Shown here: piece after piece, positions 11,401 to 30,860 of the stretch
How positions within the stretch are numbered: the stretch's first letter is position 1
Layout: every line of letters begins with the position of its first letter
Assembly: GCF_011045215.1 (NCBI RefSeq)
Contig: NZ_CP049201.1
DNA: 64,000 nt
Reading direction: 5' to 3' (one strand)
Source of the DNA: Escherichia coli
GTDB lineage: Bacteria > Pseudomonadota > Gammaproteobacteria > Enterobacterales > Enterobacteriaceae
Position numbers and translations under genes: made by a program
Notes under the pieces: generated by a model
Seen by the model: the letters and a program-made list of their open reading frames with translations, nothing else
The model's database searches: none
Told to the model about the DNA's origin: nothing

Positions 11401-14400
11401 ATTCTGCGTGTGGCGATTGATAAACTGCAGGGCGTTCAGCGTAATGGCAGAACCACTGCGAATCAGACCAGAGACGTTGTCCACAACGCCCCGTACACTG
11501 TCGAACAGAATGTCGCCCACAGACTGTATCTGTCCGTGGCTGTTCTGCAGGCCTCCCGTATGCAGACGGAGTTCACCTTCACTGACCAGCCGGCCACCCT
11601 CACGGTTATCCAGCGAGGTGGTGCTCAGGTCAGCTGTCGTTTTCGCCCCCACGGTCCCGCCCCGGTTATCCATTGCTCCGGTACTGACAGTCAGTTCCTG
11701 CAGGCTGTTCAGCGTACCCCCTCTGTTATCCAGCGTCCGGCCTGCGCTATTAATGCTGATGCCTTTCCCCTGAATAAGACCGGACTGATTGTTCAGCGCC
11801 AGACTGTTCCGGCCGGGCAGACCGGTCGCCACAATCTGACCATTCGCCACCACCTGACCGGATGTATTGTTAACCACGCCTGCAGTCAGGGACAGCGCAT
11901 CTCCCGACAAAAGCACACCGGCAGTGCTGTCCAGTGTGCCGGCATTCAGCGTCATCGGGCCCTGACTGATAACCCCGCCCCGGTCACCACTGTTACGGTT
12001 GCTCAGTGTGTCAGCACGGAGATTCAGTGTGGCACCGCTCTGTATCAGACCACCTGCATCATTGCTGATATCCGTCGAGGAAAGGGTCAGTGACTGCTGT
12101 GCCACCAGTCTGCCGCCCTGATTATCAGAGCGGGTGACATCCAGCCTGCTGTTACCGTTGCTGACCACCGTCCCCTGCTGATTTTCCAGCACATTCAGGT
12201 GCGCATTCAGGTCCCCGCCGGCGGCAAGCGTCCCTTCCTGATTACTGACATCGCCACCACTCAGCAACATATCCGTCCCGGCCTTCAGTGCGCCTTTCTG
12301 GTTCATCAGCGTACCTGACGATATCTGTAATGACGCCTGACTCCCCAGCACGCCCTGACGGTTATCGAGCGTTCCGGCGTTCAGGGTCATATCCTTCTGA
12401 CCCGCCATAAATCCCTGCTGGTTATTCAGCATACCGGCCCGTACTGTCAGGGTACCGGCGCTGCTGATACCACCCCGTGTTTTCGTGTTCCGGTTACTGA
12501 GAACCCCGTCCTGTACATCCAGCGTCATGTCACTGCCGGACTGAATCAGACCATCATCAGAGACCAGTTCGCTGCCTGACACAGACAGCGTTTTCTGTGA
12601 AAGCAGTCTGCCGGACGTATTATCCAGCGCACCATCCAGCGTCACGGACAGCCCGTCAGACACCACCGTACCCTGGTGGTTATTCAGACTCCCTGCCGAA
12701 ATATCCAGCCTGCCGGCGGACTCCATTCGTCCCTCAGTATTGCTGACAGCCTGCTGTGTTTTTATCCTGCCCGTTCCGGCAGCAGCTGAAATCAGTCCGT
12801 TGTCGTTATTCAGTGCCTGTGTATTAATCAGGATGTCACGGCTGGCAATCAGACTTCCCTGCTGGTTATCCACGGCGCCGGTTGTCCTCACCTGCAGACT
12901 ACCTGACTGCGCCGCCTGCACTTTCCCCCTGCGATTATCAAGGCTCAGTGCATCCAGGCGCACCGCGCCATTTGCCGCAAGCAGCCCTTCCCGGTTATCC
13001 ACACCTCCCGGCAGGTTCAGTGAAAAATCCCCTGTTCCCGTCTGAATCAGTTTACCCCTGTGGTTTGACAGGCTCTGTGCTGATATCTGCAGTGTGTCGG
13101 CATTTATCGTGCCGTCATTATTGCTGAACTGCCCGGCAGTCCGGGCGGAAAGCGTACCGGCACTCAGTTGCGCATTTTGCGTGAACAGATTTCCGCTGCC
13201 TGCATCCAGCTCAGTATGTTGTCCCTGTATCCGGCTGTTGCTTAAATCCAGCCCCTGCCCCTTCAGTTGCATGTCCCCACCGGACAGAACCTGTCCGTGT
13301 GCCGCCAGTTCGCCGGTGGTACTGACAGTCAGGTTGCCCGCTGCCGCCAGACGTCCGTCATCTTTCACCCCGGCGGCCAGCAGACTCCGCTCACCGCCGG
13401 TCAGACGCGCTGTCTGAATCCGGGTGTTGCGACGTGATGCCACAGAGCCTGTATGGGTGAATACACCATCACTCTGTATCTGCGTATCCTGCCCCGCATA
13501 AACAGAACCACTGTTATGCAGCTCCCGGGTTGTCACCAGATGCACATCCGTTTTCGCACTGATACTGCCACTGTTTTCAATTCGTCCGTCAGCCGTCAGG
13601 GTAACCGCCCCTGCCTGCGCACCAATATGACCGGCGTTACGAACACCCACCCCCGTTTCCGTACCGACAAGGCGAATTTTTCCGGCATACATTCCACCAA
13701 GGCTGGACACATCCAGCGCCACCTGTGGCTGCGAAGAGGCATCAGCGGCTTTTTTCTCAGTCTGCCCGTGTGCAATATCCACATTGTTACGTCCGGTGGT
13801 CACTTTCAGGTCCTGCGCCCAGATACCCGCATTAATCTTCACAGACCGGGCAATGATATCGGTATAATCCGTGCGCGAGGCATCCATCCCTTTGCCCGTA
13901 ATCTGAATCTCACCACGTTCAACACTGAATCCGGTCAGACTGCCGTTTTTCATCTGAGGCTGCCCCGTGGTCAGCGTGGCCCGGTTCGCATTAATAAAAC
14001 CGCACCCGTCGCAACTGATGCCGGCCGGGTTCGCAATCACCACCTGCGCCTTTTTCCCGGCAACCTCAACAAAACCGTTCAACTGGCTGGGATTGCGACT
14101 GTTCACTTCATTAAGAATGATTCGGGCCTCTCCCTTCGCCAGCCACGGGTTACCGGCAACCATGCCGCCCAGTTGGGTCTGCACATTTTTATGCGAGTTA
14201 TTCAGAATGACACCCTGATGACTGACATCAAACTGACTGTAAGTATTGTGCGATACCCCACCTGCAGAAGGTGTCTGGATATTGACCTGAGGAATGCCGC
14301 TGGCTGTCTGCGTAATCGTGGGCTGCTGATGCCCCGGTGCGCCATGGTCTGCGACAATGCCTGCAGCACTGACAGAATGCACCATCCCCGAGGCCAGCCA

Positions 14401-14565
14401 CAGGGAGAATGCAAGCGATGTGACACGGCAGATACGTTGCCTGCGTGGATATCCTGTACGGGAGGAGGGTGATGCACCGGCGCGACCGGAACGGGCAATA
14501 TCTGCCACCACCATCAGCATTCCCCGGGCTTTGTTAAAAATAATGCGGTAACAATTTTTGTTCAT
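5491..14565 (-). CDS. cdiA: CdiA contact-dependent inhibition exoprotein (TpsA/filamentous-haemagglutinin family), 3024 aa
   Basis: N-terminal extended signal peptide MNKNCYRIIFNKARGMLMVVADIA; TPS domain; long Gly/Thr/Asn/Ser-rich FHA-type repeats; VENN motif at codons 6247-6258; 251-aa variable C-terminal domain. Confidence 0.95.
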   Translation of the reverse strand: MNKNCYRIIFNKARGMLMVVADIARSGRAGASPSSRTGYPRRQRICRVTSLAFSLWLASGMVHSVSAAGIVADHGAPGHQQPTITQTASGIPQVNIQTPSAGGVSHNTYSQFDVSHQGVILNNSHKNVQTQLGGMVAGNPWLAKGEARIILNEVNSRNPSQLNGFVEVAGKKAQVVIANPAGISCDGCGFINANRATLTTGQPQMKNGSLTGFSVERGEIQITGKGMDASRTDYTDIIARSVKINAGIWAQDLKVTTGRNNVDIAHGQTEKKAADASSQPQVALDVSSLGGMYAGKIRLVGTETGVGVRNAGHIGAQAGAVTLTADGRIENSGSISAKTDVHLVTTRELHNSGSVYAGQDTQIQSDGVFTHTGSVASRRNTRIQTARLTGGERSLLAAGVKDDGRLAAAGNLTVSTTGELAAHGQVLSGGDMQLKGQGLDLSNSRIQGQHTELDAGSGNLFTQNAQLSAGTLSARTAGQFSNNDGTINADTLQISAQSLSNHRGKLIQTGTGDFSLNLPGGVDNREGLLAANGAVRLDALSLDNRRGKVQAAQSGSLQVRTTGAVDNQQGSLIASRDILINTQALNNDNGLISAAAGTGRIKTQQAVSNTEGRMESAGRLDISAGSLNNHQGTVVSDGLSVTLDGALDNTSGRLLSQKTLSVSGSELVSDDGLIQSGSDMTLDVQDGVLSNRNTKTRGGISSAGTLTVRAGMLNNQQGFMAGQKDMTLNAGTLDNRQGVLGSQASLQISSGTLMNQKGALKAGTDMLLSGGDVSNQEGTLAAGGDLNAHLNVLENQQGTVVSNGNSRLDVTRSDNQGGRLVAQQSLTLSSTDISNDAGGLIQSGATLNLRADTLSNRNSGDRGGVISQGPMTLNAGTLDSTAGVLLSGDALSLTAGVVNNTSGQVVANGQIVATGLPGRNSLALNNQSGLIQGKGISINSAGRTLDNRGGTLNSLQELTVSTGAMDNRGGTVGAKTTADLSTTSLDNREGGRLVSEGELRLHTGGLQNSHGQIQSVGDILFDSVRGVVDNVSGLIRSGSAITLNALQFINRHTQNTGQGLEAQTIHITTQDLDNQEGSILADRALTVMADRTLSNNDGVLSSGATLSVSGRQLAFSNRDGVVKAGQSVSVDVGQLGGDGKLLSPGDITLKSNTAFSNSGQTIANGNLTLSVNGDVSNTGSLLAGSRLDLNSIRLENTEKGEISAGQTWLNVTDTLLNRGLIDGKYTHLQANTLTNSGTGRIYGDAVGVSAATFNNLDENGVAATLAGRERVDLGVQTLNNRTHSLIYSAGDMHIGGMLDANGAATGKAGVLNNHSATIEAAGSLTLSAGQINNVNDHFTTERVVVSTEKVTEYQHRGSDVRWNAKDEGVFIDNNSSDGLLNLNTPDDTGHNNDRFTKYEYTRTVEETRVKDSDPGKILSGAGMTVVADKLLNDKSQVVAGGLLDMQAGDVENVSVSGERHVTDKGTSTYYYRIKRKNKNDRQGERISPYEPPPVIQTITLKPGELTSHGQVQGSQVTLSPLKPQGTDVQTGLTGNVDATVAVTDRIPLRPVVSAGEPVILLPGQQFEVSAPQGSIHVAGPDTRLPDSSLFKTNPAVNVPYLVETDPRFTNQKTWLGSDYMQKAFSQNGDNMLKRLGDGFYEQRLIREQVVALTGQRYLDGYSNDEEQFKALMDAGIAFGKQYNLTPGVALTAEQMALLTGDIVWLVNTTVTLPDGSTQTVQVPQVYARVKPGDVNSAGALIAGRDMVMKLDGDLFNSGKLAGKQAVQLSAENIHNQAGTIQGANVSLTARTDINSTGGLLQATDSLLAMAGRDISLTTTTRTAQRDAGQNHFERTSIDSVAGVYVQNDQGRLVLQAGRDMNLTAATVVNQGKDSLTQLSAGRDMTLSTVTTSAQDNITWDKNNRLSQGVTQNTGSTLAGNGDVTLTAGRDMTSQAASLSAQKGLALMAGHDVTLTGAQNTRSLDEYHKVTGNSGMLSKTTTTTHDVTDRRTMTGSELNGDTVSIGAGHNLNVTGSSVAGDNRVSLAAGNNLSIGTLTESNRETHLKQEKKSGLMSSGGVGFSVGSQSLKVTDTATDTTQKGSTVGSVHGDVSLQAGNRLTVNGSDLIAGRDMALSGKEVSITAATDRHVQTHTVEQKTSGLTLALSGTAGSALNTTVETVQAAKSAGNSRLEALQGVKAALSGAQAVQAGRLAEAQGNQKENNNTVGISLSYGSQSSKSEQQSEQTVAKGSTLTAGNNLSIQATGSGVKGVDGDLTIQGGQIKAGNNVLLQANRDVNLVSAENTSKLEGKNTSSGGSVGVGIGVGPGGPGFSLSASANQGKGSEKGNGTTHTETTVDAGNRLTIISGRDTTLTGAQAGGETVKVDAGRHLTLTSEQDSDRYDSKQQNASAGGSFTFGSMSGSASVNLSRDKMHSNYDSVQEQTGIFAGRGGFDVTTGQHTQLNGAVIASTATADKNRLDTGTLGFSDTENRADFKTEHQSAGLSTGGSVAGNFLGNMANNLLVGANHEGHADSTTQSAVSAGNITIRDTQSQKQDVADLNRDVAHANQTLSPIFDREKEQQRLQQAQLIGEIGNQVADIARTEGQIAGEKAKRDPAALNQARAELEAAGKPYTEQDVAQRAYNNGMAASGFGTGGKYQQAIQAATAAVQGLAGGNLSAALAGGAAPYIAEIIKQTTPDGAGRVAAHAVVNAALSLAQGKNALAGAAGAATGEVVGMIATQMYGKPVSELSETEKQTVSTLATVAAGLAGGLVGDSGASAVAGAQSGKTTVENNYLSSKQIDAWSAEMKSCQAKGGDCGGIIKKYEELSTAQQKQLISDCAASPATCQQKYGDVLTDSLAVKQAIDRALGEDIPIKMVYDLTATFAQQMQAEGVVATNKVSEALQEEYGLDEVQAGIVASAAASAFGGISKVKGNSQPKIEQILKPEKNWETARNKALDLVGNLGADSKPVIGRLEVSAGNGKVIGRQSSDGKVGWRVDYDPEKGTHINIWDYSQGKGPGKAVKQVIPFEGNEKSFETILKQLNR
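5494..6258 (-). other. VENN motif plus CdiA-CT polymorphic toxin domain (251 aa)
   Basis: gttgagaataac (VENN) encoded on the minus strand at 6247-6258; Cys-rich segment (SCQAKGGDCGG...DCAASPATCQQ) right after VENN; distinct C-terminal domain ...GWRVDYDPEKGTHINIWDYSQGKG... Confidence 0.8.
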
Positions 14566-14580
14566 TCTGATAAACCTGAC

Positions 14581-15108
14581 TTATCTCTCCGGCACATCCA
14601 CAGCAAGCGGGTGCTGCACACGCCACTGGCGCGCCTCTTCACGACTGACCTGTGCACCCCGGAAATTCATCACCCGCAACCCGGTCTGCTGCCCACGGTG
14701 GTACAGCGAACGCCAGCACAGACGGGGAAAAATATCCTGCCGGACAAGACGACTCATATCCGGGGTATGTCCAAAAGGGGCAATCCAGTCACAGACCCAC
14801 ATCCGGTCGCCGCTGTTCCAGTCCGACTGAGGCATGAGAATTGCCGGCTGCGTAAGATAACGCGCCTCTGCCTCCGGGCTGAGCCAGGCCTGGCTCATGA
14901 AGAAAACCGGTCGCCCCTGCTCTGTTGCCACCACATACTGTCGGTGCTTAATCACCGGCAGCAGCAGGTCCGGCAGGGTATGCAGTGGCGCATCACGATG
15001 CAGGGGGGAGTGCATCCACAACCAGACGGCCGCCCCCAGGACTTCCGCCTCATTGACCGGCTCACCGGAATACAGGGGACTCAGAACGTCATATTTCCCG
15101 TTACGCAT
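14581..15108 (-). CDS. cdiC: CdiC, HlyC/TAAT-family lysine acyltransferase
   Basis: 175 aa; WLWMHSPLHRD ... HRQYVV ... WNSGDRMWVCDWIAPFGH closely parallel the HlyC motifs (WLWASSPLHRN ... NQYVLL ... WTSGDRKWFIDWIAPFGD, recalled from memory); sits between cdiB and cdiA. Confidence 0.85.
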   Translation of the reverse strand: MRNGKYDVLSPLYSGEPVNEAEVLGAAVWLWMHSPLHRDAPLHTLPDLLLPVIKHRQYVVATEQGRPVFFMSQAWLSPEAEARYLTQPAILMPQSDWNSGDRMWVCDWIAPFGHTPDMSRLVRQDIFPRLCWRSLYHRGQQTGLRVMNFRGAQVSREEARQWRVQHPLAVDVPER

Positions 15109-15117
15109 GAAACTTTC

Positions 15118-16857
15118 TCAGAAATCCCGGAACAGATTAAAACCGGCTGTCACATCACTCGTCATAAAACCCGCCGGCTTTGAAAACGGACGACCGATGA
15201 AAACGTCATAATCCGTACTGAACAGTTGCCCCCTCAGCCCCACAACACCACCAGCCAGATGACGTCCCACCAGGTATTCACTGCCGGCTCCCCCCACCTC
15301 GCCGTAATCCATTCCCAGATATAACTCCTGCTCCGGCAGTGGCGTACGCCAGGCCAGGTCGTTGCGGATATACCAGCCGTTACTGGCATTCAGCGTTCGC
15401 TCCCCGTCAAAACCACGAACCGTCCAGCGGTTACCGATGGCAAACTGTTCCTGTGGGGTCAGCGGGGTATTGCTCAGCTGGCGCTGATACCGGAAGGAAT
15501 AACTGAAGGGCTGCCCTGCAAGGGTAAAGGGCAGATTAAAGGATGCATTCAACTGCAGGATCTTACTGAGCGCCGTTGCCTCACCGAACGTTTCTTCCGG
15601 CGCCGGCTGTGCACCAAACCAGCGGGTTCCCCGTTGCCAGCTGACACCAGCATCCAGTGTGGCCTGAGAAATATAATGACGGTGCTGCAGCCCAAGTCGC
15701 CAGGCCGCTGTCTGCCGGCGCTGCACCTGGATTTCCGTATCATTAATGTAGTTACGCGACCTGCGGGCCTGAACATCGTAGGTCAGCACCGTTTTCTGCG
15801 TCCCGTTACGGTGCAGTACCCGGCTCAGCTGCATACCCAGATTCTGACTCTCGCCACTGTACTGGTAATCCTCAACCGCACCAGCTACCGTCTGATGGTA
15901 ATCGTAATCACTGGCGGTGACGGAAAACTGCCAGTAGCCGAAAGGCACAGAGTAATGGGCCGTGTAGTTTTTACTGCCCTTACCCCCGTAATGTGGAAAA
16001 TTACGGGTGGCAGAAACATACAGCAGGTCACTCAGGGAAAAAGGATTATCCAGAGAAAATGTTATACCACCGAGATAACGCCCTGTGCTGCGGGTACCTG
16101 AATCATCAAGCGAAAACCCCAGTCGCCAGTATTTGTCCTGTTTGCGGGTAATAAGAATGTCACTTTCCCCTGGCTGCTCACCGGGTACAATTTCCATATC
16201 AGCCTGCACACCCGGCAGTCGTTGCATATTCTCCAGCCCCTGCTCAATGTCCCGTAAATCCAGCAGAGAACCTTCGTGTGCCGGGAATGAGGAATACAAC
16301 TGAATATAGTCATCACTGTCCGGTGTCAGACGCACATGTCGCACAACACCGGGAATAACAACCAGCCGGAGGATACCGCTTTTTAAATCCTGCGAAGGTG
16401 CCAGAACACGGGTGGTGACATAACCATGATCGACCAGACGGTTCTGCAATGTACTCATCAGCAGATTAATTCCTTTCGCCCCCAGGCAATGCCCGACCGC
16501 CCCGTTGGCGATTTTTTGTAAAGGCAGCCAGTGTGGTAACGCATCAGCCCCCTCCAGTTCCGTCTGTTTAATCTGAAAACAGGGCGTTTCAACAGGAAAA
16601 TTAATCTTACGGGCAAAAGAGCCAGGTGCAGAAAGGCGAACATCAGGGGCTGAAGGCGTCAGTTGTTGCTCAAGGGCTTCCTGACGCTGCTGCTGAATGA
16701 TAAATGCATTATCTCCGCTACGCCGGACATCCGCGGCCTGAAGAGATAAAGGCGATAATAAAACAGACATCAGTGTCAGTGACAGCAAGGACGGACAGCG
16801 CCGGAATACGCTTTGTTCCTCAGCCCTCTCGTTCCTGCAACATAATTTTCCAGTCAA
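15118..16857 (-). CDS. cdiB: CdiB outer-membrane TpsB transporter (ShlB/FhaC/HecB family)
   Basis: 579 aa; signal peptide; POTRA-like N-terminal region and beta-barrel C-terminus ending in an aromatic residue; immediately upstream of cdiC-cdiA. Confidence 0.9.
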
Positions 16858-18012: not shown

Positions 18013-18636
18013 TCAGAGATGGTATGCCGGCACTTTGCGGGTTGTTCCCGTCAGGTTATCGTGCACCTCCACATTCGTTGTCACTACCGGCATTCCGCTC
18101 TGTCTTAATCTCAGGACATCAGCCGCAATACGCTGACTGCCAGACCAGAACAGCCCGTCCAGTGCGGTCACCAGTAAACCTGCTTCCAGCGCATACTTCA
18201 GCCGTTCACGGGACGCTTTCACTTCCCGGGCAACCTGCTGATATGGCAATGATGTGTTTTCATTCCCAACCACGCGACGAATACGGTGAGACAGATGATA
18301 CCGGAATGTATCCGGCACACCCGAAAGGCTGGCCTTCAGGCTGTACACGCAGCCAAACCGTTTATCGTTGAACACCACATTTTTCTGGCTGATGCCCCAT
18401 TCTTCACGCAGCGCGGCAATCAGTTGTGGTGTCCGGGTAAGCAGCAAGCGAAAAGGCAGCTCAAAACTGGTGACGTAATCCACATTCAGCAGTGCAATAC
18501 GCAGCCGTTCTTCTGGCCCGGCCCCTGTCTGCCGGCACTCATCCAGAACATCCTGCCACTGCCGACGAAGACGTGGAGATTCATTCAGTTCTGTAAAACA
18601 GTATTTATTCACCAGATAATCAATTCGTGTACGCAT
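18013..18636 (-). CDS. Hypothetical protein (207 aa)
   Basis: ORF with balanced composition; no recognisable motif. Confidence 0.45.
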   Translation of the reverse strand: MRTRIDYLVNKYCFTELNESPRLRRQWQDVLDECRQTGAGPEERLRIALLNVDYVTSFELPFRLLLTRTPQLIAALREEWGISQKNVVFNDKRFGCVYSLKASLSGVPDTFRYHLSHRIRRVVGNENTSLPYQQVAREVKASRERLKYALEAGLLVTALDGLFWSGSQRIAADVLRLRQSGMPVVTTNVEVHDNLTGTTRKVPAYHL

Positions 18637-21738: not shown

Positions 21739-22302
21739 TCAGTTATGTCGTGGTCGGCCGCGGTTACTTTTTTCGGGAAGCCTGCTACGCCCCAGAATAA
21801 TACCGTGTTCTTTCTGATCCTGTTTCGCCAGATAGCTAAGGGCGTAACGTAAGTCGTCTACCGCAGATTTATCACTATAGTGAATTACATGATCGATACG
21901 CACCGGGTATTTATCTTTAGCCCGGCACAGGTGAAAATAACCCTCCCCTTCCGTGATCCGCCTCCAGATATCTCCCAGTTGCCTGGATATCTGATAAGAG
22001 TTCTTGTGACGTTGTCCATCCAGATAGCCGATAAAATGAATATGAAGCCCTTTGTCTGGTGTATATTCCATTACCCAGTAATATCCCGCCAACATCGTCT
22101 GGGTTTCGCTAAGTAAGCGGTACATTTCCATACACATACTGTGCTTACAGGAAAGACCAAAACTGGGCGTGTCTTTCCTGTAAGCAAAATCAATTCTGAA
22201 AGGTAACAGTTTAGAAAAACGTTGAAACAGACCTTCCATGTGTTCATTCACATCTTTCAGAATCGCGAAATTCATTTCGTAATTGGGATTGGCATTATAC
22301 AT
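21739..22302 (-). CDS. YfjJ/YagK-like (inovirus Gp2-type) prophage protein
   Basis: 187 aa; family resemblance to CP4-57 YfjJ; prophage gene context. Confidence 0.55.
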   Translation of the reverse strand: MYNANPNYEMNFAILKDVNEHMEGLFQRFSKLLPFRIDFAYRKDTPSFGLSCKHSMCMEMYRLLSETQTMLAGYYWVMEYTPDKGLHIHFIGYLDGQRHKNSYQISRQLGDIWRRITEGEGYFHLCRAKDKYPVRIDHVIHYSDKSAVDDLRYALSYLAKQDQKEHGIILGRSRLPEKSNRGRPRHN

Positions 22303-23240: not shown

Positions 23241-24692
23241 TCAGAGGTCAAAGTTAGGTGCGACACACAACGTTTTTCCCTCAATAACCGGTACAACTCT
23301 GTTTTGTTCATACAGTAAATCCAGTAACCAGTTGATTTTATCCTTTTTCCGGAAACGGTTCGGGCCACGCTGTAAAATGTCATTTTTTTTCATACAGAGG
23401 ATCCCCTTCTCAATGCAATAGCTTTTTATCCAGTTGAAAAGTTCAAGCTCCTCTGGAATGAGTCGCACAGGTACGGTCAGGGCGGAGTTGTCAAAAGTTA
23501 ACGGATTAGACAACCGCACATACTCATTACCGTACCATATTGCTAATTCTCTCGCCATTTCTGCAGTGTAAGGGGAAATCTCCCCCTCTTCACCGCTCGA
23601 ATGGTAAATAAGTCCTGCCAGTCTTGCCATATACTCTGCATTTTTAGCAGCATATTCCCGGCAATGTCTTAAAGGCCCCAATCCCCCCAGCTTCGATTCC
23701 ACATCATTGTAATAATCCGTCCAGATTCTGGCAGCCTGAGGAGAAAAGTGAAGGCAACGTCGTTCACCACTCATCGCCAGACTTTCATCAATAAGCTCAT
23801 TGATCCTCTCTTCAAACAAATCCTGATACTGTGATGAATAATTATCTCCGGTTATTATCCTTGTCCCCTGCGTTGATGTTGGTTGACACATCAAAAACCT
23901 TGCATGATGTCCTGACGTTTTCACAAGTTCTTTTTTTCGCGTACAAAAACCTTTGTGGTAAACATCAGGCTGAATCATCACCGATATCGTCAGTCTTGGC
24001 TCCTTCAAATTAATTCCGGGAGATGATTTCCTGTCGATGAAAAGAGAACCTCCATCCCACAAAGTGTTAATAATTCCCAGTTTACTCATGGCCCGGCTGT
24101 CAAAAATTACCCCCCCTTCACTGGATACAAGAGCAAAAGAGCGATTGCTATCAGAGTAATATTTTAACATTCCCTCTATCGTTGTCTCATTAAAAATTGT
24201 TCGACGTATCTGCGGCGGAACAGGAGATTTATTCAGATGCGTTTCAAGCTCTGATTCTGTTGCCTTGTAATCTTTACCGGCACGAATCTCTTTATGAAAT
24301 TTTGATTCCAGCGCTTTTTGTTTTTGCTCCCATATTTCCTTTTCTGTACTGTAATTCTCAACCAGTTTCGCGTATTCTTCCGCCAGGGCTTCATCCCTGA
24401 GATAAAATGCTTTCATAAACACTTTATCCACGGTCGTTTTCCTTTCACCGGAATCAGCCAGAATCAGAGAGTAAAGATTAACAGGCCCATGTAAATTTCC
24501 AGGTCTGCACACGTCAATCTGATTCTGACAGGCAATTGAGATCGCTGTTAATGCGGATGTTGCCACCATAGCCAAAGGTGCCTGTGTATTTTTTTGAGTT
24601 TCAATTATTGCATTTCTCACCAGCGGTGGTAGTGCATATATCGGATAAGGATTTTCTGGTGCAAGTAAGCACATAAAAGCCTCTCTTTTCAT
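23241..24692 (-). CDS. DUF3987-domain protein (YfjI-like, primase C-terminal-like)
   Basis: 483 aa; sits downstream of alpA as yfjI does in CP4-57. Confidence 0.6.
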   Translation of the reverse strand: MKREAFMCLLAPENPYPIYALPPLVRNAIIETQKNTQAPLAMVATSALTAISIACQNQIDVCRPGNLHGPVNLYSLILADSGERKTTVDKVFMKAFYLRDEALAEEYAKLVENYSTEKEIWEQKQKALESKFHKEIRAGKDYKATESELETHLNKSPVPPQIRRTIFNETTIEGMLKYYSDSNRSFALVSSEGGVIFDSRAMSKLGIINTLWDGGSLFIDRKSSPGINLKEPRLTISVMIQPDVYHKGFCTRKKELVKTSGHHARFLMCQPTSTQGTRIITGDNYSSQYQDLFEERINELIDESLAMSGERRCLHFSPQAARIWTDYYNDVESKLGGLGPLRHCREYAAKNAEYMARLAGLIYHSSGEEGEISPYTAEMARELAIWYGNEYVRLSNPLTFDNSALTVPVRLIPEELELFNWIKSYCIEKGILCMKKNDILQRGPNRFRKKDKINWLLDLLYEQNRVVPVIEGKTLCVAPNFDL

Positions 24693-24892
24693 TAATGGGT
24701 TAGTAAAATAGCAGCAACTCCCGCTACAATAGCGAAAATAGCTGCTATTCAGACCTGATGCTCTGAGAAATACTGAGCATTTGTAGATCTGATGTTTAAT
24801 AAACCGATAAGGTTAATTCAGTGCAGACTGTATTATTTACCACGAAATATCATTCATATTTCTCATTCTTAATACCTCCAGAAATTATTTCA

Positions 24893-25090
24893 CTAATACC
24901 TTTCCCCCGGTCTTTTCCCTTTCTCCAGAACCATAGTGTAAATATTAACGGCCCCACGTAAATTTCCGGGGCTGCATACGTCAACCTGATTCTGACAGGC
25001 AATTGACATCGCTGTTAATACTGACATTGCAACCAGAGTCAGAGGTACTTGTTTATTGTATTGAGCTTTAATTATTGCCTTCCCTATCAT
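24893..25090 (-). pseudogene. Duplicated 5' fragment of the DUF3987 gene
   Basis: 65-aa ORF (…TLVAMSVLTAMSIACQNQVDVCSPGNLRGAVNIY…) paralogous to the N-terminus of the 483-aa protein (…LAMVATSALTAISIACQNQIDVCRPGNLHGPVNLY…); flanking DNA is also duplicated. Confidence 0.5.
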
Positions 25091-25316
25091 TGATGGTCAC
25101 GTATATACTGAATACGGCATATCCGGTTTGATGTAAGACATAAATGCTTCCTTTTTCGTAATACGTTTCGGTTATAGCAGCAATTACCGCTACAATAGCG
25201 ACAATAGCTGCTCTTTCAACAATGAATGCTGGAAATTCTGTTTATCAATTAAACTTCTGGCTAAATTGTTCTTATGCTTCTTTTTCCTCCTGAGGTGATC
25301 ACGTGATGACAAAAAC

Positions 25317-25625
25317 TTATCTGCTCATGGTCATATCTGAAGAAAGCGTATGTCGCACTTCGTCATTAACACCTTTGACTGCTGATCTGGCAGGTACAGT
25401 ATGTAAAGTAAGCCATTCGTCAATAGCTGATGAACGCCAGCCCACAGAACCACTACCAAGACGTACCGGCCTGGGGAAGGTTGCATCGTAGTATTTCGAT
25501 AACGGATTCATTTTTTCGTAAATTGTCGAACGAGATATACCTAACAATTGGCTCAGTTCAGGCATCCGTAAGATGCGTGAAGGAGTCCAGCAGTATCCGG
25601 ATTGATCTGGCATTTTATCCCCCAT
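25317..25625 (-). CDS. alpA: AlpA-family phage transcriptional regulator (HTH)
   Basis: ...RILRMPELSQLLGISRSTIYEKM... is the AlpA-type helix-turn-helix signature; start codon uncertain (25625, 25613 or 25697). Confidence 0.7.
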   Translation of the reverse strand: MGDKMPDQSGYCWTPSRILRMPELSQLLGISRSTIYEKMNPLSKYYDATFPRPVRLGSGSVGWRSSAIDEWLTLHTVPARSAVKGVNDEVRHTLSSDMTMSR

Positions 25626-25822: not shown

Positions 25823-26585
25823 GGTAATGACTCCAGTCAGTAGTACAGTGTTTTCGATAAATGAACCAATGGCTTTTCGTGAATTTCCAGGGAGCGTGAA
25901 AAGCAAATCGTTTTCCGGGCTGGTCGTTTGATGTGAGTACGAAGTGTCAGATTGTTGCGCTCAATGCGCCGGGTAAATATCTTGCCGACAAGATGCTTAT
26001 CCTGTGGCATTTCTCTGGTATAACTGCTCCGGTTGTCTCTGGTTATCATGCCTGTGGAGAATGGCTTCAGGAGTTCCGGCAACTCACGACATGTTTCATC
26101 AGTGCGAGGACCAAAAGTGTAAGCCAGCACACCTCCAGATTTGGTGTTATACGCATACCAGTGCCACTGCTGACGAGCTTTGTTTTCGACAAAACTCCAT
26201 TGTTCATCAAGTTCGCAGATAAGCGCCACATCGGCACTGACGTCTGGAGATGTGGTTACTTTGCGTGGTGAGCGTTTTATAAAGTGAGAATGACGGTGTT
26301 GATATCCACCTTCAGCGTTCTGGAGCTATCGCGAACCCGACTCCGTTATGAACCATTTCAACAATTTGCTCTTTGATGCCTGGTTTTCGGGTTTCGTAGA
26401 TGTAATTCAGTTGAAATACACACATTTGCAGGATTAGCACTGGAAACGCTCATGATCTGAGGTGCTGTGATCATAATGGTACACTTTATAGGAATTACAG
26501 CGGGGAGAATGTACTGTAACTGTTGCCATATGGTCTCCAGATACCAATAGAATATCACATTAATCTATCGTCAGAAGGCATCACC
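25823..26585 (-). mobile_element. IS1-family insertion sequence, divergent and degenerate (763 bp)
   Basis: Terminal sequence ggtaatgactcca at 25823 and gcatcacc at 26578-26585 match the IS1 inverted repeats; the 130-aa ORF 25837-26229 resembles the InsB C-terminus (MALICELDEQW...RIERHNL...); the InsA-like frame is interrupted. Confidence 0.6.
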
Positions 26586-26725
26586 GGGGCCTTCTGACAT
26601 AATCTGTTAATACGTGTACTATTACCCTGTTCAGAAAATATTGATTCAAAAATGAAAACCAGTTAACAGAAAAGCAAAATGATATAATGTTAAAATTTTA
26701 TATAGTGCAATAAAAGGAGAATGTT

Positions 26726-28543
26726 ATGTATAATTTTATCACTATAATGTATGATGTCTTTTCATGTTTTGGTGTTCTGGCTAAAAACCAGAATACCCGT
26801 GACATCCGAAATATTAAAAATTTTTCCTCACATCAACATTCACTGGGCGACATGTTTGATGAATTAATAAACATTATTGATAAAGAACAAGTATTGAGTA
26901 CAGAACAACGAAAAGTTATATTTAGGAGATATGAAGATCTCTATGTTAAGCTAATGCACTATTCTGTTTTTACAGACAAAACACATCAAATAATAAAACA
27001 AAAATATTTTAATGACATTGTACCAATGATTCTCGCACTCGACATCAGGAACACATATCGCCCGGATAATGAGATGGCATTTTACTATCATATTCATTCT
27101 TTTCTCACTCAGATACCGGATAATGAGGATGATATATATCATGCTGCAAGGACATATCTGCGAAATTACATTAAGTTATGTTTATCCGGATACACACCAG
27201 CGAATGCGCATTTCAAAGATATCTTTGATGGCGTATATGAATTCATTCGTAATATTCGCAAAAACAGTACACCAGGAAAAACAAAACTTACCGCAACTAT
27301 CAACACATGCAAAGAAACCTGTAAACATCTGCTTTATTTAAGTAATGAAGACAAGGAAAAAATAATTTCTGACTTAGATAAAATTCAAGTTGCATGTTAT
27401 TATCTCACCATATTACTGGCTTTCGAAAGACGAACTTCATTAACAAGCGCCCTGGCAACTTTATATAAAATGCTGATAAGCGAAAGAGAAGTTTCAGAAT
27501 ATGAATGCCAGTTATTATATTTAACCAACCCAATAGATGTAATGAATATACTGAACAAACACATATATTACTTTCCTAATGAGAACTCACCATTTTATAC
27601 ACTGAAAATTGACAGTGCATTATCGTGGGAGGCCATTGACGCAATACGAGACTATAGTATTTCTGATATTTATCTTTATCCTGAACAAAAAACAATAAAT
27701 TGTGTCGTTGAGATTGAAAACATTGTCTTTGGCGGTTACATTTATACATTGAACAACGGCGTCACATTACAAAACATAGAAAACACTTTAAAAGATTCTT
27801 CATGCCATTATGTCTTAAATGGCTATACAGAATTTGTTAACTGTTTGATACAACTTACTTCAGGAAAGACTGAAAGTGTTCATCGCACCATCAATAAACT
27901 GAACTATGAGAAATTACCTTTTGGATTTATCATTGCCGCGTTTGCTATACTAAAGATAGCATTTAAAATAAAATTCAGTAAAAATCATGTAAATATCCGA
28001 GCATTATTAAATGACATCAATTATTTTATGACTTATCAGGGCGAGTCCATTAACCTTATTTCACTGGATCACGAATACCCAGAGTCCTGTCTTCAAAATG
28101 ACACAAACACATATTTATTAGGAAGAGTAATATTTCTGTATAACTCAATGATTTATAAGTTCATAAACTGTCAGGAACATGAAACCAATAACATTCACTC
28201 AGCTATGATAAATAACCTATTACAGGAAGTTGATATAGCCCTTGGTAAAATAAATAACATTATAGACAGCAGAAATATATCAACCCCCCATGAACTAGCA
28301 AATATTCTTACCCGCGAAAAAATACTTACAACACGGGAAAAAAAAGGAAACCTGATAAGCCTGTTTGATGGATTCACTTTATTCCATTGTGTTGGAATGA
28401 TAACCTTTCTTATCCATTATCTCAGAACACCTGAAGAAAAAGTTGAAAATATATTTATGTTATATGGTGCAGATAAAAACAATAAACTACGCAGAAGACT
28501 GATTTATGACGCACTAGGAATAATTCAGTCTCAGCAGGAGTGA
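26726..28543 (+). CDS. Hypothetical 605-aa protein, strongly AT-rich, no recognised domain
   Basis: Long uninterrupted ORF in low-GC DNA with AGGAGA 7 nt upstream of the ATG; Asn/Ile/Tyr/Lys-rich; two short hydrophobic segments; no P-loop or nuclease motif recognised. Confidence 0.6.
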   Translation: MYNFITIMYDVFSCFGVLAKNQNTRDIRNIKNFSSHQHSLGDMFDELINIIDKEQVLSTEQRKVIFRRYEDLYVKLMHYSVFTDKTHQIIKQKYFNDIVPMILALDIRNTYRPDNEMAFYYHIHSFLTQIPDNEDDIYHAARTYLRNYIKLCLSGYTPANAHFKDIFDGVYEFIRNIRKNSTPGKTKLTATINTCKETCKHLLYLSNEDKEKIISDLDKIQVACYYLTILLAFERRTSLTSALATLYKMLISEREVSEYECQLLYLTNPIDVMNILNKHIYYFPNENSPFYTLKIDSALSWEAIDAIRDYSISDIYLYPEQKTINCVVEIENIVFGGYIYTLNNGVTLQNIENTLKDSSCHYVLNGYTEFVNCLIQLTSGKTESVHRTINKLNYEKLPFGFIIAAFAILKIAFKIKFSKNHVNIRALLNDINYFMTYQGESINLISLDHEYPESCLQNDTNTYLLGRVIFLYNSMIYKFINCQEHETNNIHSAMINNLLQEVDIALGKINNIIDSRNISTPHELANILTREKILTTREKKGNLISLFDGFTLFHCVGMITFLIHYLRTPEEKVENIFMLYGADKNNKLRRRLIYDALGIIQSQQE

Positions 28544-28730
28544 AACGTTAAAACAGGCAAATTGTTTTTTATAAACAGGAGATTGTTGAGTAATCCCCTG
28601 TTTATAAAAATACGCTTTCCTGACGATCTGATAATTATCAGCTCAATACATTTGACATAAAAGCGGTTCCTTAATTACTACTGCCACGATCACATATCAA
28701 ATCATGATCGTACAATATACATTTTCACTA

Positions 28731-29933
28731 TTATTTATTCACAATTTGAGACATCACATAATCCGCCCATGCCTGCATCATCGGTACACGCTGCTCCAGT
28801 AGATCAGTGCGATGATATGCCGCCTCAACCTTATTTTTCAGCGTATGAGCGAGCGCCCTTTCCGCCAGATCCCGCGAATACCCCTGTTCACTACACCAGT
28901 CCCTGAATGTTGAGCGAAAACCATGTGCCGTGGCAACTCGCCCCGGAATGTCACTGACGGCTTTCTTTTTACGCAGAAAACTTGTCAACACCATATCGGA
29001 AAGGATCTGCTGCTTTCTGGGTGAAGGGAACACCAGTTCATCATGCAGGCCACGTATATTTTCCAGAATGTAAATAGCCTGCCGGGATAAAGGAACACGA
29101 TGCTGTAGCCTAGCTTTCATTCTTTCTGCAGGTATAGTCCATACCCGCTTATGAAAATCAATTTCAGCCCAGCGCATTCCCCTGGCTTCGCCCGAGCGAG
29201 TTGCTGTAAGTATCACCATTAATAACAGTGCGCGGGTAACATTATAAGGTTCATCACTATACACACTGGTCGCCACAAAAAGCGGTAACTGCCTCCAGGG
29301 CATTGCGGGTTGGTGTTCATCACGTCCTCTTGTCTGCTGAGGAAGCAAATGGTCAACCACATCAACAGGATTTGCCACACAAAAACCGTGCGCCCATCCC
29401 CACTGCATAACAACATGAATGCGCTGTTTAACCCGGCTTGCCGTTTCTGACAAGGTTAACCAGACTGGACGCAATGTTTCTGCCACGTCCGCAGCCGTAA
29501 TCGAATCCAGCGTTTTTGCTCCCAGTTGAGGAAACGCGTAATTCTCAAGCGTCGATAACCACTGCCTTACATGCTTTGGATTTTCCCATCCAGGAGACAG
29601 TTCTGCATGTACACGCCTGGCTGCATCGGCAAATGTTGGGATAACGACTTTCTCAGATTCAGCCTTTTTAATCTCCAGAGGATCATCACCTGCAGCAAGT
29701 TGCTCTCGCATTATCCGGGCAGTACGTGCAGCTTCAGCAATACTGACCTCTGGGTAAGTTCCCAATCCAGCATTACGTCTTTTTTGTGTCACCGGACTTA
29801 CATAACGAAAAACCCATTTCCCCCGCCCCTTTACTGAAGAAGGATGAAGGGTCAGTCCGGTAATTCCCCCATGGGGCAATGGTTTGTCATCAGGTTTGAT
29901 ATGTCTTGCTTTCGTATCCGTCAATACTGCCAT
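28731..29933 (-). CDS. int: P4-type (tyrosine recombinase) phage integrase
   Basis: 400 aa; N-terminus MAVLTDTKARHIKP...; C-terminal catalytic region with HGFRST...; ends ...LAHT...AYHRTD...RVPMMQAWADYV, conserved in P4-family integrases. Confidence 0.9.
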   Translation of the reverse strand: MAVLTDTKARHIKPDDKPLPHGGITGLTLHPSSVKGRGKWVFRYVSPVTQKRRNAGLGTYPEVSIAEAARTARIMREQLAAGDDPLEIKKAESEKVVIPTFADAARRVHAELSPGWENPKHVRQWLSTLENYAFPQLGAKTLDSITAADVAETLRPVWLTLSETASRVKQRIHVVMQWGWAHGFCVANPVDVVDHLLPQQTRGRDEHQPAMPWRQLPLFVATSVYSDEPYNVTRALLLMVILTATRSGEARGMRWAEIDFHKRVWTIPAERMKARLQHRVPLSRQAIYILENIRGLHDELVFPSPRKQQILSDMVLTSFLRKKKAVSDIPGRVATAHGFRSTFRDWCSEQGYSRDLAERALAHTLKNKVEAAYHRTDLLEQRVPMMQAWADYVMSQIVNK

Positions 29934-30149: not shown

Positions 30150-30860
30150 ATGCGCCTATAAGGCTCTCTTACCAGCCGCGCCCTAACAGGCGCACACGAT
30201 CTGACATTTGCATCCAACTTCGTTACTTACGGCCCGTAAACGGGCTGCCCGGATAGGGAATCGATAACTGCTCTCCCATTTCATCCTCTTCAAGCTGGTG
30301 CTTTATGTAATCCTGTATCTTCGCCGTGTTCTTACCCACCGTATCGACGTAGTACCCTCTGCACCAGAACTCCCTGTTCCTGTATTTGAATTTCAAATCC
30401 CCAAACTGCTCATAAAGCATCAGACTGCTTTTCCCTTTCAGATATCCCATAAAGCCGGATACGCTCATTTTGGGCGGGATCTCCACAAGCATATGGATAT
30501 GATCTGCACAGCATTCAGCTTCAAGAATCCGTACGCTTTTCCACTCACACAGCTTTCTCAAAATACTGCCTATTGCTCTACGCTTCTCTCTGTAGAACAC
30601 TTGTCTTCGGTATTTTGGCGCAAAAACTATGTGATATTTACAGTTCCATCGGGTGTGCGCTAAGCTCTTTTCGTTCCCCATTGGGACCCCCTTTTGATTT
30701 CTTGTTTGACACTTGCAGTTGCCAGACCGCAAGGTGTTTTAACAAATCAAAAGGGGTTTTAATAACTGGCTCAAAGCTGAAAGCTTTCCGGAACCCCCAG
30801 CCTAGCTGGGGGTTTTCTGTGCACAAGAAGAGCCCGTACGAAAGTACGGGCTTTTTTTTC
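30150..30860 (-). mobile_element. IS200 element (ends approximate)
   Basis: tnpA flanked by palindromes (acggcccgtaaacgggctgcc at about 30232; gcccgtacgaaagtacgggc plus T8 at 30831-30858); boundaries not determined. Confidence 0.5.
30223..30684 (-). CDS. tnpA: IS200 transposase TnpA (IS200/IS605 family Y1 HuH transposase)
   Basis: MGNEKSLAHTRWNCKYHIVFAPKYRR...HIHMLVEIPP...YY motifs; near-identical to IS200 TnpA as recalled; start taken at Met17 of the 169-aa ORF. Confidence 0.85.
   Translation of the reverse strand, partial: PMGNEKSLAHTRWNCKYHIVFAPKYRRQVFYREKRRAIGSILRKLCEWKSVRILEAECCADHIHMLVEIPPKMSVSGFMGYLKGKSSLMLYEQFGDLKFKYRNREFWCRGYYVDTVGKNTAKIQDYIKHQLEEDEMGEQLSIPYPGSPFTGRK

Follow-up and report, generated by a model that had tools for sequence, protein, structure and literature searches.

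Gene X, an open reading frame of 605 codons in a 64,000-nucleotide stretch of Escherichia coli DNA (hereafter the window), appears from comparison of homologous loci to be a constant of the alpA module of its island and not the occupant of a variable slot between the integrase and alpA, because its relatives stand head-to-head with alpA and DUF3987 throughout, while the integrase and the cargo move. X is more likely to belong to the control machinery of the island than to be an anti-phage gene, since the family is always found head-to-head with alpA in a single class of enterobacterial islands. The earlier note had placed X in a variable cargo position between integrase and alpA and considered it a candidate single-gene defence system; as that premise is unsupported (X lies head-to-head with alpA-DUF3987 in 9 of 9 homologues and 12 of 12 scanned loci), the defence reading has lost its main argument. 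The features of the region are listed in Table 1.

Table 1. Gene X and neighbouring features, with positions in the window
Feature	Position	Strand	Description
YfjJ/YagK-type "inovirus Gp2" protein	21739..22302	-	Putative replication initiator; ORF list, RefSeq annotation
YfjI-family DUF3987 protein	23241..24692	-	Primase/helicase-like; ORF list, RefSeq annotation
Tandem partial duplication beside alpA	24705..25215	-	Two palindromes and a DUF3987 fragment
Palindromes of the duplication	24705-24750, 25165-25215		GCTATTG..TAGC
DUF3987 fragment within the duplication	24893-25090		N-terminal
alpA/rox-type gene	25317..25613	-	Phage_AlpA family (PF05930); excision regulator/recombination directionality factor; divergent from X
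Degenerate IS1	25836..26560	-	alpA-X intergenic region; frameshifted, internal stop; RefSeq annotation of identical arrangement, ORF fragments
Upstream region of X	26561..26725	+	From IS1 scar to ATG; read from sequence
Extended -10 TGATATAAT	26680-26688	+	Upstream of X; promoter-like match
Shine-Dalgarno AAGGAG of X	26714-26719	+	Strong; 6 nt before ATG
Gene X	26726..28543	+	605 aa, ATG start; RefSeq WP_000282219.1, "hypothetical protein"
AT-rich hairpin	28566..28610	.	19-nt arms, 7-nt loop; between convergent X and int
P4-family tyrosine integrase	28731..29933	-	400 aa; convergent with X; ycdU-proximal island end

Gene X and the island around it

The very AT-rich frame is present as it had been described, with GC content of 0.31-0.34 (about 32% overall) compared with 0.40-0.49 in the flanks, and on the strand opposite to both alpA and int. 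Chance is ruled out for a 605-codon frame in DNA of this composition: X is a real gene under selection. Its dN/dS ratio is 0.20 at dS 0.21 against an allele diverged by 11%, and 0.20-0.30 in four independent comparisons; that of the integrase is 0.05. In nucleotide identity to the diverged allele X reaches 93.5% and the adjacent IS1 scar 88.7% with indels, X being more conserved than both the scar and the intergenic DNA beside it. Some signs of decay are seen: a 1-bp deletion shortens the product to 542-546 aa in some E. coli lineages, the surrounding alpA module carries IS scars, and X is disrupted in four or five of the 12 loci scanned (Xenorhabdus, Citrobacter koseri, Enterobacter cloacae, Pseudescherichia), so it is dispensable. 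However, a decaying or non-functional frame, open by chance or hitch-hiking with the island, is hardly credible and is disfavoured by the dN/dS values, by the greater conservation of X relative to its flanking DNA, by a frame that stays open across more than 1000 genomes, and by full-length homologues with a consistent confident fold in many genera.

In the window X is predicted to have its own sigma-70-type promoter, given the extended -10 upstream of it. This upstream region is unrelated to the control region of about 100 bp that lies between alpA and X in canonical loci and that is interrupted by IS1 in the window. The degenerate IS1, noticed before and indeed frameshifted and stop-containing, is common to the window allele and the allele 11% diverged from it; the insertion is old and has separated X from alpA in the window, and purifying selection on X, int, and alpA persists despite the scar. 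The hairpin downstream of X is probably a bidirectional terminator, and it occupies the spot of a conserved GCTAC palindrome in other loci. Rfam models gave no known RNA inside or adjoining X.

The context of X is assigned to the CP4-57/SRL-PAI/OI-43-48-type integrative islands by the P4-family integrase at one island end and by the alpA/rox-yfjI(DUF3987)-yfjJ(Gp2-like) block, identified from the RefSeq annotation of a near-identical region (at least 99% identity) and from Pfam families in homologous loci. By gene names alone, the RefSeq annotation of the region contains no P4 structural or regulatory genes. The integrase is labelled a tyrosine recombinase in RefSeq, and its homologue in locus L020 contains the Arm-DNA-bind_3, Phage_int_M, and Phage_integrase domains; the window alpA is 98.3% conserved relative to the same locus. 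The DUF3987 protein of the window is closest to K-12 YfjI (42%), and is 23-30% identical to the DUF3987 proteins of other X loci. The view that such P4-integrase islands can carry defence genes is borne out by related loci, whose cargo includes CHAT, Abi_alpha/Abi_C, type I restriction-modification, and SLATT/GAP1/DO-GTPase genes.

Distribution, synteny and divergence of the X family

About 19% of complete E. coli genomes carry X, always annotated as hypothetical and located on OI-43/OI-48/SpLE1/SRL-PAI-type islands; in O157:H7 genomes it is found at 99% identity. A word-indexed search returned only relatives of at least 91% identity, even with an alignment as the query, whereas an exhaustive HMMER search reached full-length Enterobacterales and Aeromonas relatives with identities of 24-39%. 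The term "orphan" is appropriate in that no relative is characterised, but a family of full-length homologues exists, and X is best assigned to this uncharacterised family. The reported lack of a recognisable motif holds for Pfam, NCBIfam, PADLOC, PHROGs, and PDB sequences, and the same family searches with 10 homologues and the family profile gave no assignment. Matches to X among plasmids comprise four records, all from E. coli and non-mobilizable, two of them megabase-sized; these are mislabelled or very large. No paper was found that mentions WP_000282219 or the likely O157/CFT073 locus tags, the literature on the function of the alpA-yfjI-yfjJ module does not extend beyond Rox, AlpA, and PICMI, and a survey of E. 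coli defence islands does not discuss X.

All nine remote homologues (19-35% identity) are head-to-head with alpA at a distance of 60-250 bp, with DUF3987 next, and E. coli GF4-3 has the same layout. An AlpA-based scan of one genome per species gave 11 enterobacterial loci and one MAG, all 12 with X in this arrangement; the scan patterns were derived from X-linked AlpA proteins, so the constant association applies to that AlpA clade, where an X-family gene occupies the alpA-divergent position in 21 of 21 loci. X stays beside alpA, and the integrase and cargo shift around the X-alpA-DUF3987 block, in several loci to its far side. Within E. coli, alpA, IS1, and the ORF keep this order almost without exception, in 1026 of about 1030 genomes that carry X. 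Neither unrelated genes at the same position in close backbones nor the same gene in other contexts (phages, plasmids, other hotspots), both typical of a defence hotspot, were observed for X, and every genomic context of X that was examined adjoins alpA. Acinetobacter proteins encoded divergently from alpA were compared with X and rejected as homologues.

Pairwise identities of X and of DUF3987 correlate (Spearman 0.79), and this broad co-divergence is what characterises a backbone gene and sets it apart from shuffled cargo. At the same time, X diverges faster than its module neighbours. For instance, loci L011 and L015 share 92% identity from yfjJ to alpA and on across the control region into the initial 50-100 nt of X; the body of X then has only 39% protein identity, before similarity returns at the palindrome. 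Discordance occurs in both directions: an X identity of 39% is found alongside 92-93% for DUF3987, AlpA, and YfjJ, and one of 81% alongside 33% for DUF3987. The central third of the protein (residues 241-360) is its least conserved part, the N- and C-terminal parts being conserved, and dS varies 15-fold along the gene. X is mosaic, with alleles exchanged like cassettes. Pervasive positive selection was considered and is not seen (omega 0.2-0.3); mosaic recombination and relaxed central constraint account better for the fast divergence. In every locus the GC content of X falls 5-12 points below that of its own module.

This AT-richness, fast divergence, and cassette-like exchange would also fit a stand-alone anti-phage or anti-MGE defence or abortive-infection protein, hard-wired beside alpA, whose variable centre senses a phage component and which exerts a non-enzymatic stop, for example by sequestration or membrane action. 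We regard such a role as possible but somewhat unlikely. It agrees with the defence cargo of related loci and with abpAB in K-12 CP4-57, with the frequent loss or pseudogenisation of X elsewhere, and with the purifying selection that maintains X in 19% of E. coli genomes although its module is partly decayed, a pattern that points to some advantage for the host. On the other hand, one and the same family holds this place even where identity has dropped to about 20%, and its divergence follows that of DUF3987, unlike hotspot cargo; it was never seen outside the alpA-divergent position, and X has no match among 50,697 phage records, satellites included. The failure of PADLOC-DB 2.0.0 to match any of 11 family members (X of the window at E <= 1, 10 diverse homologues at E <= 0.1) is weak evidence, as this database dates from 2023 and defence systems described later are outside its coverage.

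The control region between alpA and X, about 100 bp in most lineages, is conserved at the DNA level: it can be aligned, with near-invariant blocks, across 10 loci whose X proteins are just 30-40% identical. On the other side of the gene, 10-60 bp after the X stop codon, 14 of 17 loci contain a perfect palindrome of GCTAC units with arms of 14-25 nt, which occurs once per locus and changes symmetrically on both arms; palindromes of a related type lie ahead of DUF3987 both in the window and in K-12. Given that the module also encodes a primase/helicase-like protein and a Gp2-like initiator, X might be an accessory factor for island replication or transfer at the palindrome, which would perhaps be an origin or nick site for YfjJ and YfjI; origin recognition, copy control, and hijacking of helper packaging or conjugation machinery are possible roles. 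The module has no recognisable transfer gene, so some such function is unaccounted for. Still, we find this alternative very unlikely. Accessory proteins of replication normally co-evolve tightly with their initiator, in conflict with the discordant identities of X and DUF3987 given above. Further, the window allele is conserved with no GCTAC palindrome after it, and the palindrome may be no more than a conserved terminator or a recombination boundary.

Protein properties and candidate role of X

The AlphaFold model of X, built with a 19-sequence alignment, is all-alpha (pLDDT 84, pTM 0.84); the single-sequence model was unusable (pLDDT 37). Its likeness to solved structures is no more than a generic one to helical bundles or TPR proteins; a Foldseek search of AFDB50 gave uncharacterised relatives and nothing else, and the viral structures of BFVD gave no match. 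The product of X, about 600 aa long, looks soluble and all-alpha and contains no catalytic motif. The two hydrophobic segments reported earlier were recovered at approximately aa 397-415 and 550-566. The first, with a Kyte-Doolittle 19-residue mean of 2.04 in the window allele (1.3-1.8 in other members), could be taken in favour of a defence protein; however, this helix is amphipathic and contains K/R/H in other members and is buried in the confident compact model (pLDDT 87-95 there), and X has no nuclease, NTPase, TIR, Sir2, protease, or pore-type domain. Some UniProt fragments of the family are labelled "Membrane protein".

Members of the P0052 subfamily, 866 aa in length and at the same position beside alpA, have an N-terminal IS481-transposase-like region (NCBIfam NF033577, E 2.5e-12) that includes the DNA-binding part of the NF033577 family; a Pfam search of this long fusion gave no match. 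A further E. coli relative of 930 aa in AFDB is annotated as an HTH-domain protein.

We tentatively suggest that X may sense or regulate the AlpA excision-replication switch by non-enzymatic means and be a backbone part of the AlpA(Rox)-YfjI(DUF3987)-YfjJ(Gp2-like) module, a role read only from position and by analogy. It would be in agreement with the synteny, the co-divergence with DUF3987, the conserved control region, the P0052 fusion and the HTH-annotated relative, the variable centre, and the persisting selection. Islands of this type still excise (PMC3064760), and AlpA is the switch of the int-alpA-DUF3987 satellites PICMI, where the phage-sensing step is unknown (PMC10803314). As such a regulator, X would act through binding and not catalysis: contact with the module, whether at AlpA, the control region, or the palindrome, would be made by its conserved ends, the variable centre would detect a trigger that differs between lineages, for example a protein brought in by a helper phage or plasmid, and X would thereby set the AlpA-dependent excision/replication programme on or off, in a manner analogous in logic, not in sequence, to SaPI Stl or a phage immunity gene.

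Several observations speak against this regulatory role. Canonical members have no detectable DNA-binding domain, the pI varies from 5.7 to 9.2 across the family, and AT-richness is a trait often seen in accessory and defence genes. Moreover, X of the window is still conserved even though its upstream region differs, IS1 stands between it and alpA, and the palindrome is missing, so that its selected function may not need cis-linkage to alpA.

A more far-reaching version, which we consider distinctly unlikely, makes X the missing trigger sensor of the "cryptic" CP4-57/SRL-PAI/OI-43-48-type islands: its hypervariable centre would bind a specific incoming phage or plasmid protein, and the conserved ends would release the AlpA-YfjI-YfjJ programme, leading to excision and to replication from the GCTAC palindrome. 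If so, these widespread pathogenicity and defence islands would behave as inducible elements akin to satellites, with X representing a new fold class of Stl-like sensor, which may also blunt the inducing phage.

In E. coli, Shigella, and Salmonella, few carriers of virulence, resistance, and anti-phage genes are as common as islands with a P4-type integrase and AlpA/YfjI/YfjJ, such as the tellurite/urease/Iha islands of O157, the SRL PAI, and CP4-57 of K-12. The X family is the only large conserved component of this module with no assigned role, and the window allele is present in about one fifth of E. coli genomes. With X a constant of the module and not cargo, island induction and regulation become the priority alongside phage plating, and the alpA-X control region and the GCTAC palindrome provide two conserved cis elements as handles. 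Should X be a sensor, it would explain the induction of these islands; should it be a defence protein, it would have a new fold without a known effector domain.

Comparison with known systems

The TPR sensors of the RRNPP group (NprR, Rap, AimR) give structural scores no better than dozens of unrelated helical proteins. They are Firmicutes proteins, whereas X has neither an HTH nor an adjacent peptide gene; an RRNPP/AimR-type receptor, with N-terminal HTH plus TPR and a cognate peptide gene, was rejected for X.

In CP4-57 of K-12, which belongs to a more distant clade, the position and orientation of X are taken by yfjH (int -> <- yfjH / alpA -> yfjI -> yfjJ). YfjH is likewise AT-rich (37% GC) and uncharacterised, but has only 318 aa, and was rejected as a homologue (hhalign probability 0.05, BLASTP E 0.39). 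Its presence there is compatible with the replacement of one regulator by a non-homologous one, as well as with a slot.

The PICMI satellites of Vibrionaceae have the order int - iolg/icg - alpA - up1 - prim[DUF3987], with 13 unrelated families of unknown function between int and alpA, and helper-phage activation of their alpA regulon is unknown (PMC10803314). They share the P4-type integrase, the AlpA switch, and the DUF3987 primase with the X islands. The PICMI gene iolg differs from X in that it overlaps int in the same orientation and is required for excision. X, which is much larger than iolg and unrelated to it, is transcribed away from alpA and towards int. To our knowledge no helper phage has been described for the enterobacterial X islands, unlike PICMI.

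SaPI Stl and X are both divergent from the excision/replication operon of the element and highly diverse between otherwise similar elements, and the divergent transcription across a shared control region that would be expected of an Stl-like system is found in canonical loci. X, too, would act by protein binding, and its variable part would be expected to recognise a helper protein. The two are unrelated in sequence and in fold; X is two to three times the size of Stl, and its canonical members have no detectable HTH.

The OI-43/48 integrase is 99% identical to that of the SRL PAI (PMC3064760). The gene order in the latter is int, orf2 (YfjI/DUF3987), orf3 (rox, an AlpA-type directionality factor), orf4 ("no similarity"), and orf5 (Gp2 family) (PMC6980539), and Rox has been described in both studies (PMC6980539, PMC3064760). 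This order matches the int/DUF3987/alpA/X layout of locus L007, at the same ycdU site; orf4 would then be the X-family member P0026, as judged from gene order only. No function has been published for orf4 or for the gene in O157 O-island 43/48/SpLE1.

Finally, the defence genes of P2/P4 hotspots and the single-gene Abi/PD systems resemble X in that they reside in integrase-bearing E. coli elements and are AT-rich, fast-evolving, and often without an annotated domain. However, P2/P4 hotspot cargo consists of unrelated systems swapped between near-identical backbones, whereas X is one family fixed beside alpA.

Gene X and its protein family

All features attributed by the earlier note to the AT-rich ORF (gene X) and its surroundings were found by ORF scan, GC profile and annotation of the region. 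The GC content is 0.31-0.34 across X versus 0.40-0.49 in both flanks, and the ATG is preceded by AAGGAG (6 nt) and an extended -10 element TGATATAAT (~40 nt upstream). In the window, alpA is separated from X by an IS1 with a frameshift and an internal stop, and is followed leftward by a DUF3987 fragment, a full YfjI-family DUF3987 gene and a YfjJ 'inovirus Gp2' gene. X occurs in 1036 of 5426 complete E. coli genomes, O157:H7, ST131 and ATCC 25922 among them, with identity of at least 99% in 929 records, and is invariably annotated as 'hypothetical protein' (WP_000282219.1).

The same IS1 scar is carried by a lineage that shares 89% identity with the window over the whole yfjJ-to-int block, hence the alpA-IS1-X arrangement is old. 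Between these two alleles, nucleotide identity is 93.5% in X, 88.7% in the IS1 scar (with 18 gap columns) and 85.5% in the X-int spacer; X has dS 0.21, dN 0.041 and dN/dS 0.20 (Nei-Gojobori, custom script), and dN/dS is 0.05 for the integrase and 0.07 for alpA. A 1-bp deletion at nucleotide 1613 accounts for the 542-546-aa database variants; the codons 3' of it still look constrained, so this frameshift is recent. X is split into two or three pieces in Xenorhabdus (L025; L numbers denote compared loci, P numbers X-family proteins), Citrobacter koseri (L027), Enterobacter cloacae (L031) and Pseudescherichia (L032). Judged from its sequence, X is a real and functional gene under selection, and a dead ORF is effectively excluded.

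Neither the window protein nor ten diverse relatives and the family profile had a match in PADLOC, NCBIfam, PHROGs, Pfam or PDB sequences, in agreement with the earlier report of no recognisable motif. The term orphan holds in that no known family was matched, but not otherwise: a word-indexed search reaches only alleles at least 91% identical, whereas an exhaustive HMMER scan of 1.84 billion representatives found 33 proteins, about 14 of them full-length relatives (570-690 aa, 24-39% identity). Structure prediction, which had been suggested as a check, gave a confident AlphaFold model with the homologue alignment (pLDDT 84, pTM 0.84; 28 helices, no strands). Relatives from Leclercia, Pantoea, Hafnia, Salmonella, Shigella and Providencia have independent AFDB models that superpose on it with TM 0.8-0.87; remoter matches are from Aeromonas (16-18% identity, TM ~0.74), Burkholderia and Tolumonas, and every one of these structural relatives is 'uncharacterized'. 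Both short hydrophobic segments noticed earlier are present, as helices within the compact predicted model, the first being amphipathic (LPxGYLxxAFxxIxxALKIKL) in the remaining family members. Conserved residues are mainly hydrophobic, with no Walker, nuclease, HEPN, TIR or protease-like signature among them. X is thus a selected, all-alpha protein of non-enzymatic appearance.

X as a constant partner of one alpA clade

The earlier note placed X in a variable cargo position between the integrase and alpA. The survey of homologues it called for does not support this: X lies beside alpA in all relatives checked, and it is the integrase and cargo that move. In each of nine remote relatives checked (P0024, P0025, P0026, P0027, P0030, P0034, P0037, P0051, P0052), X is divergent from alpA (PF05930), beginning 60-250 bp from it; alpA is followed by DUF3987 (PF13148) in all nine and then usually by YagK_YfjJ_C (PF11726). 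The integrase lies past the far end of this block in L003, L004, L006, L007 and L015. Cargo sometimes separates the two (CHAT in L006; DUF4062, Abi_alpha and Abi_C in L015) or is found 3' of X (type I RM and an SMC-like ATPase in L006; SLATT, GAP1-N1, DO-GTPases and GASH in L011). Other flanking cargo includes a 1912-aa trypsin/AAA_16 protein, PNP_UDP genes and, in one locus, an AEP-primase/DEAD-helicase protein that may be similar to SpLE1's IS-excision enhancer (IEE).

A scan with AlpA patterns of one genome per species (GTDB) yielded 60 loci. An X-family gene occupies the alpA-divergent position in all 11 enterobacterial loci and one MAG, with DUF3987 downstream in 11 of these 12 and X disrupted in four or five, and is missing from the other 48 (Pseudomonas, Acinetobacter, Burkholderia, others). 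Since the patterns were derived from X-linked AlpA proteins, the scan shows that X co-occurs with this AlpA clade, not that it stands beside every alpA. The MAG locus (L029, JAEWTL010000133.1) is a 3.2-kb contig labelled 'MAG: Bacillota bacterium', whose X-alpA-DUF3987 segment has 93% protein identity to enterobacterial L003 and is probably contamination or mis-binning. Among close relatives the position is not variable, as the alpA-IS1-X stretch is intact in 1026 E. coli genomes. E. coli GF4-3 has another X allele at the same ycdU site, with canonical 100-bp spacing and a similar integrase adjoining. With the positional argument gone, and with domain, database and context support all absent, the proposal that X is a defence gene appears unlikely.

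Pairwise identities of X and DUF3987 over 16 loci are correlated (Spearman 0.79), indicating that X is mostly inherited with the module, yet X diverges faster: DUF3987 identities of 93-94% correspond to 82-93% in X, and 72-78% to 39-50%. Omega between close alleles is 0.27-0.30 for X versus 0.17-0.25 for DUF3987, and dS along X spans 0.09 to 1.33, which indicates mosaic recombination. Two pairs are discordant: L011/L015 (X 39%, DUF3987 92%, AlpA 93%, YfjJ 92%) and L006/L026 (X 81%, DUF3987 33%; AlpA and YfjJ not available). In the former pair, 92% nucleotide similarity extends from yfjJ across alpA and the alpA-X spacer as far as 50-100 nt inside X, collapses beyond that point and resumes at a 36-bp palindrome shortly after X. 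The least conserved part of the protein is residues 241-360, and the most conserved are the N-terminal 120 residues, 361-480 and 521-560; in all loci the GC content of X is 5-12 points below that of its own module. X consistently accompanies one clade of AlpA-YfjI-YfjJ modules and evolves fast.

The window module itself is recombinant, as K-12 YfjI and YfjJ, and not the counterparts in other X loci, are the nearest relatives of its DUF3987 and YfjJ. Each GCTATTG..TAGC palindrome of its tandem duplication precedes a DUF3987 start, one that of the full gene and the other that of the duplicated 65-aa fragment, and a related palindrome likewise lies between alpA and yfjI in K-12.

Conserved elements bracketing X and its possible role

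In most lineages X is bracketed by two conserved cis elements. The ~100-bp alpA-X region is alignable over ten loci although the X proteins are only 30-40% identical; it carries lineage-specific dyads, e.g. CTGCCA-N7-TGGCAG, and a near-invariant block ...CTGAGATACTGTCCCCGTAAAAAAAYGGAAACCAACCGGAGG immediately 5' of the X start codon (block given as TGTCCCCGTAAAAAAAYGGAAACCAACCGGAGG). No consensus sigma-70 promoter was detected in this region of canonical loci, which would fit activator-dependent promoters. The second element, a perfect palindrome with 14-25-nt arms of GCTAC units, e.g. CTGCTACAGCTGCTAC GT GTAGCAGCTGTAGCAG, is present as a single copy per locus in 14 of 17 loci, 10-60 bp 3' of the X stop. 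Its substitutions are mirrored on both arms and its conservation is far above that of the X proteins, and it may be an origin/nick site or a protein-binding site. That X is a replication or transfer accessory acting at this palindrome seems rather improbable. In the window, no GCTAC palindrome follows X, where an AT-rich hairpin of a different kind is found, and the upstream region, unrelated to the canonical one, has a good extended -10.

Tentatively, we favor X as the sensor or regulator of the module: the conserved ends would mediate interaction with the module and the variable centre would determine trigger specificity, by a logic as in Stl or an immunity gene. Additional hints come from a 930-aa AFDB relative annotated HTH and from the IS481-like N-terminus of one subfamily, represented by P0052. 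The 300-aa N-terminal extension of this protein matches IS481 transposase (NF033577, E 2.5e-12, profile positions 39-194 of 284), and by eye its catalytic acidic residues look replaced. The extension could represent a DNA-binding module that was domesticated or a fusion of IS origin. Against the sensor or regulator role stand the lack of a DNA-binding domain in canonical members, the conservation of the window allele despite its uncoupling from alpA, the persistent AT-richness of X and its frequent loss.

Coordinates of gene X, its neighbors and related features
Feature	Location	Strand	Remark
Gene X	window 26726..28543	+	ATG-initiated ORF, 605 aa
P4-family integrase	window 28731..29933	-	convergent with X
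alpA-type gene	window 25317..25613	-	divergent from X
Tandem partial duplication	window 24705-25215		two related GCTATTG..TAGC palindromes, 24705-24750 and 25165-25215
DUF3987, full gene	window 23241-24692		
DUF3987, N-terminal fragment	window 24893-25090		65 aa
AT-rich hairpin	window 28566-28610		
IS200-type tnpA and Rfam sRNA STnc490	window 30223-30814		STnc490 30691-30814, 146 bits; between integrase and ycdU
Left-hand cargo	window 5491-16857		3024-aa filamentous-haemagglutinin-type protein (TIGR01731, TIGR01901), adjoining 579-aa ORF
Left-hand cargo	window 18013-18636		ECs1377-family gene
Right of ycdU	window 31011-51340		fatty-acid/polyketide-like cluster (malonyltransferase, ketosynthases, ACP, FabZ-like)
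X with 1-bp deletion	L020 10001-11629; also L023		542-546-aa products, P0003-P0021; some E. coli lineages
P0052	L018 2467-5067; also L019		866-aa X-family member, still divergent from alpA-DUF3987
alpA-X intergenic region	L003 9898-10000		equivalents in L002, L006, L007, L010, L015, L028, L033, L070, L085
GCTAC palindrome	L002 5674-5713; L006 11837-11876; L007 11865-11904; L011 11923-11964; L015 12021-12054; L018 5148-5181; L085 18509-18550		also L026, L028, L030, L033, L034, L070
Variable cargo	L006 3020-6829, 12696-18750; L010 593-6331; L011 1-5270, 11993-19283; L015 3856-7066; L020 2500-4851		around X-alpA-DUF3987-yfjJ block
alpA-divergent genes, other clades	L044 1949-3403; L050 4549-5901; L054 4502-5866; L014 3645-4601		L014, K-12 yfjH

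Island identity and comparison with known elements

Adjoining the integrase is ycdU in the window and clpA in strain A0 34/86; these junctions are those of O157 O-islands 48 and 43/SpLE1, at serX and serW (PMC3064760). The OI-43/48 integrase and its Shigella SRL PAI counterpart share 99% identity, and excision of OI-43/48 still occurs (PMC3064760). ARAGORN found no tRNA in the whole window, and analogy with OI-43/48 (PMC3064760) suggests that the island end next to the integrase is the cryptic ser'X one. The left-hand cargo and the contents right of ycdU, where a second ShlB/FhaC and haemagglutinin pair is also found, were judged by annotation of the collinear region in GF4-3.

Databases have contained the X ORF ever since the O157 genomes, and in this sense it is nothing unusual. 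Three aspects appear to be undescribed: its family is confined to the position divergent from alpA, the gene belongs to the backbone and not to the cargo, and it is accompanied by a conserved control region and palindrome. X provides a clean, testable lead on control of a very common island class.

Further alpA clades also have an AT-rich uncharacterised gene divergent from alpA. The Acinetobacter proteins (450-484 aa) share only ~20% identity, and K-12 CP4-57, otherwise of the same layout as X loci, has the unrelated YfjH (318 aa) where X would be; none of these matched PADLOC, NCBIfam or the X profile. In the PICMI satellites of Vibrio, int, alpA and a DUF3987 primase form the helper-induced excision/replication core, uncharacterised genes lie between int and alpA, and the helper-sensing step is undescribed (PMC10803314). 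X would be a regulatory or accessory partner gene of a mobile element, with an unrelated predicted fold. Finally, in the SRL PAI, rox (orf3) encodes a directionality factor of the AlpA type, orf2 resembles YfjI and orf4 is described as having 'no similarity' (PMC6980539); this gene order is that of L007, and thus orf4 is probably a member of the X family.
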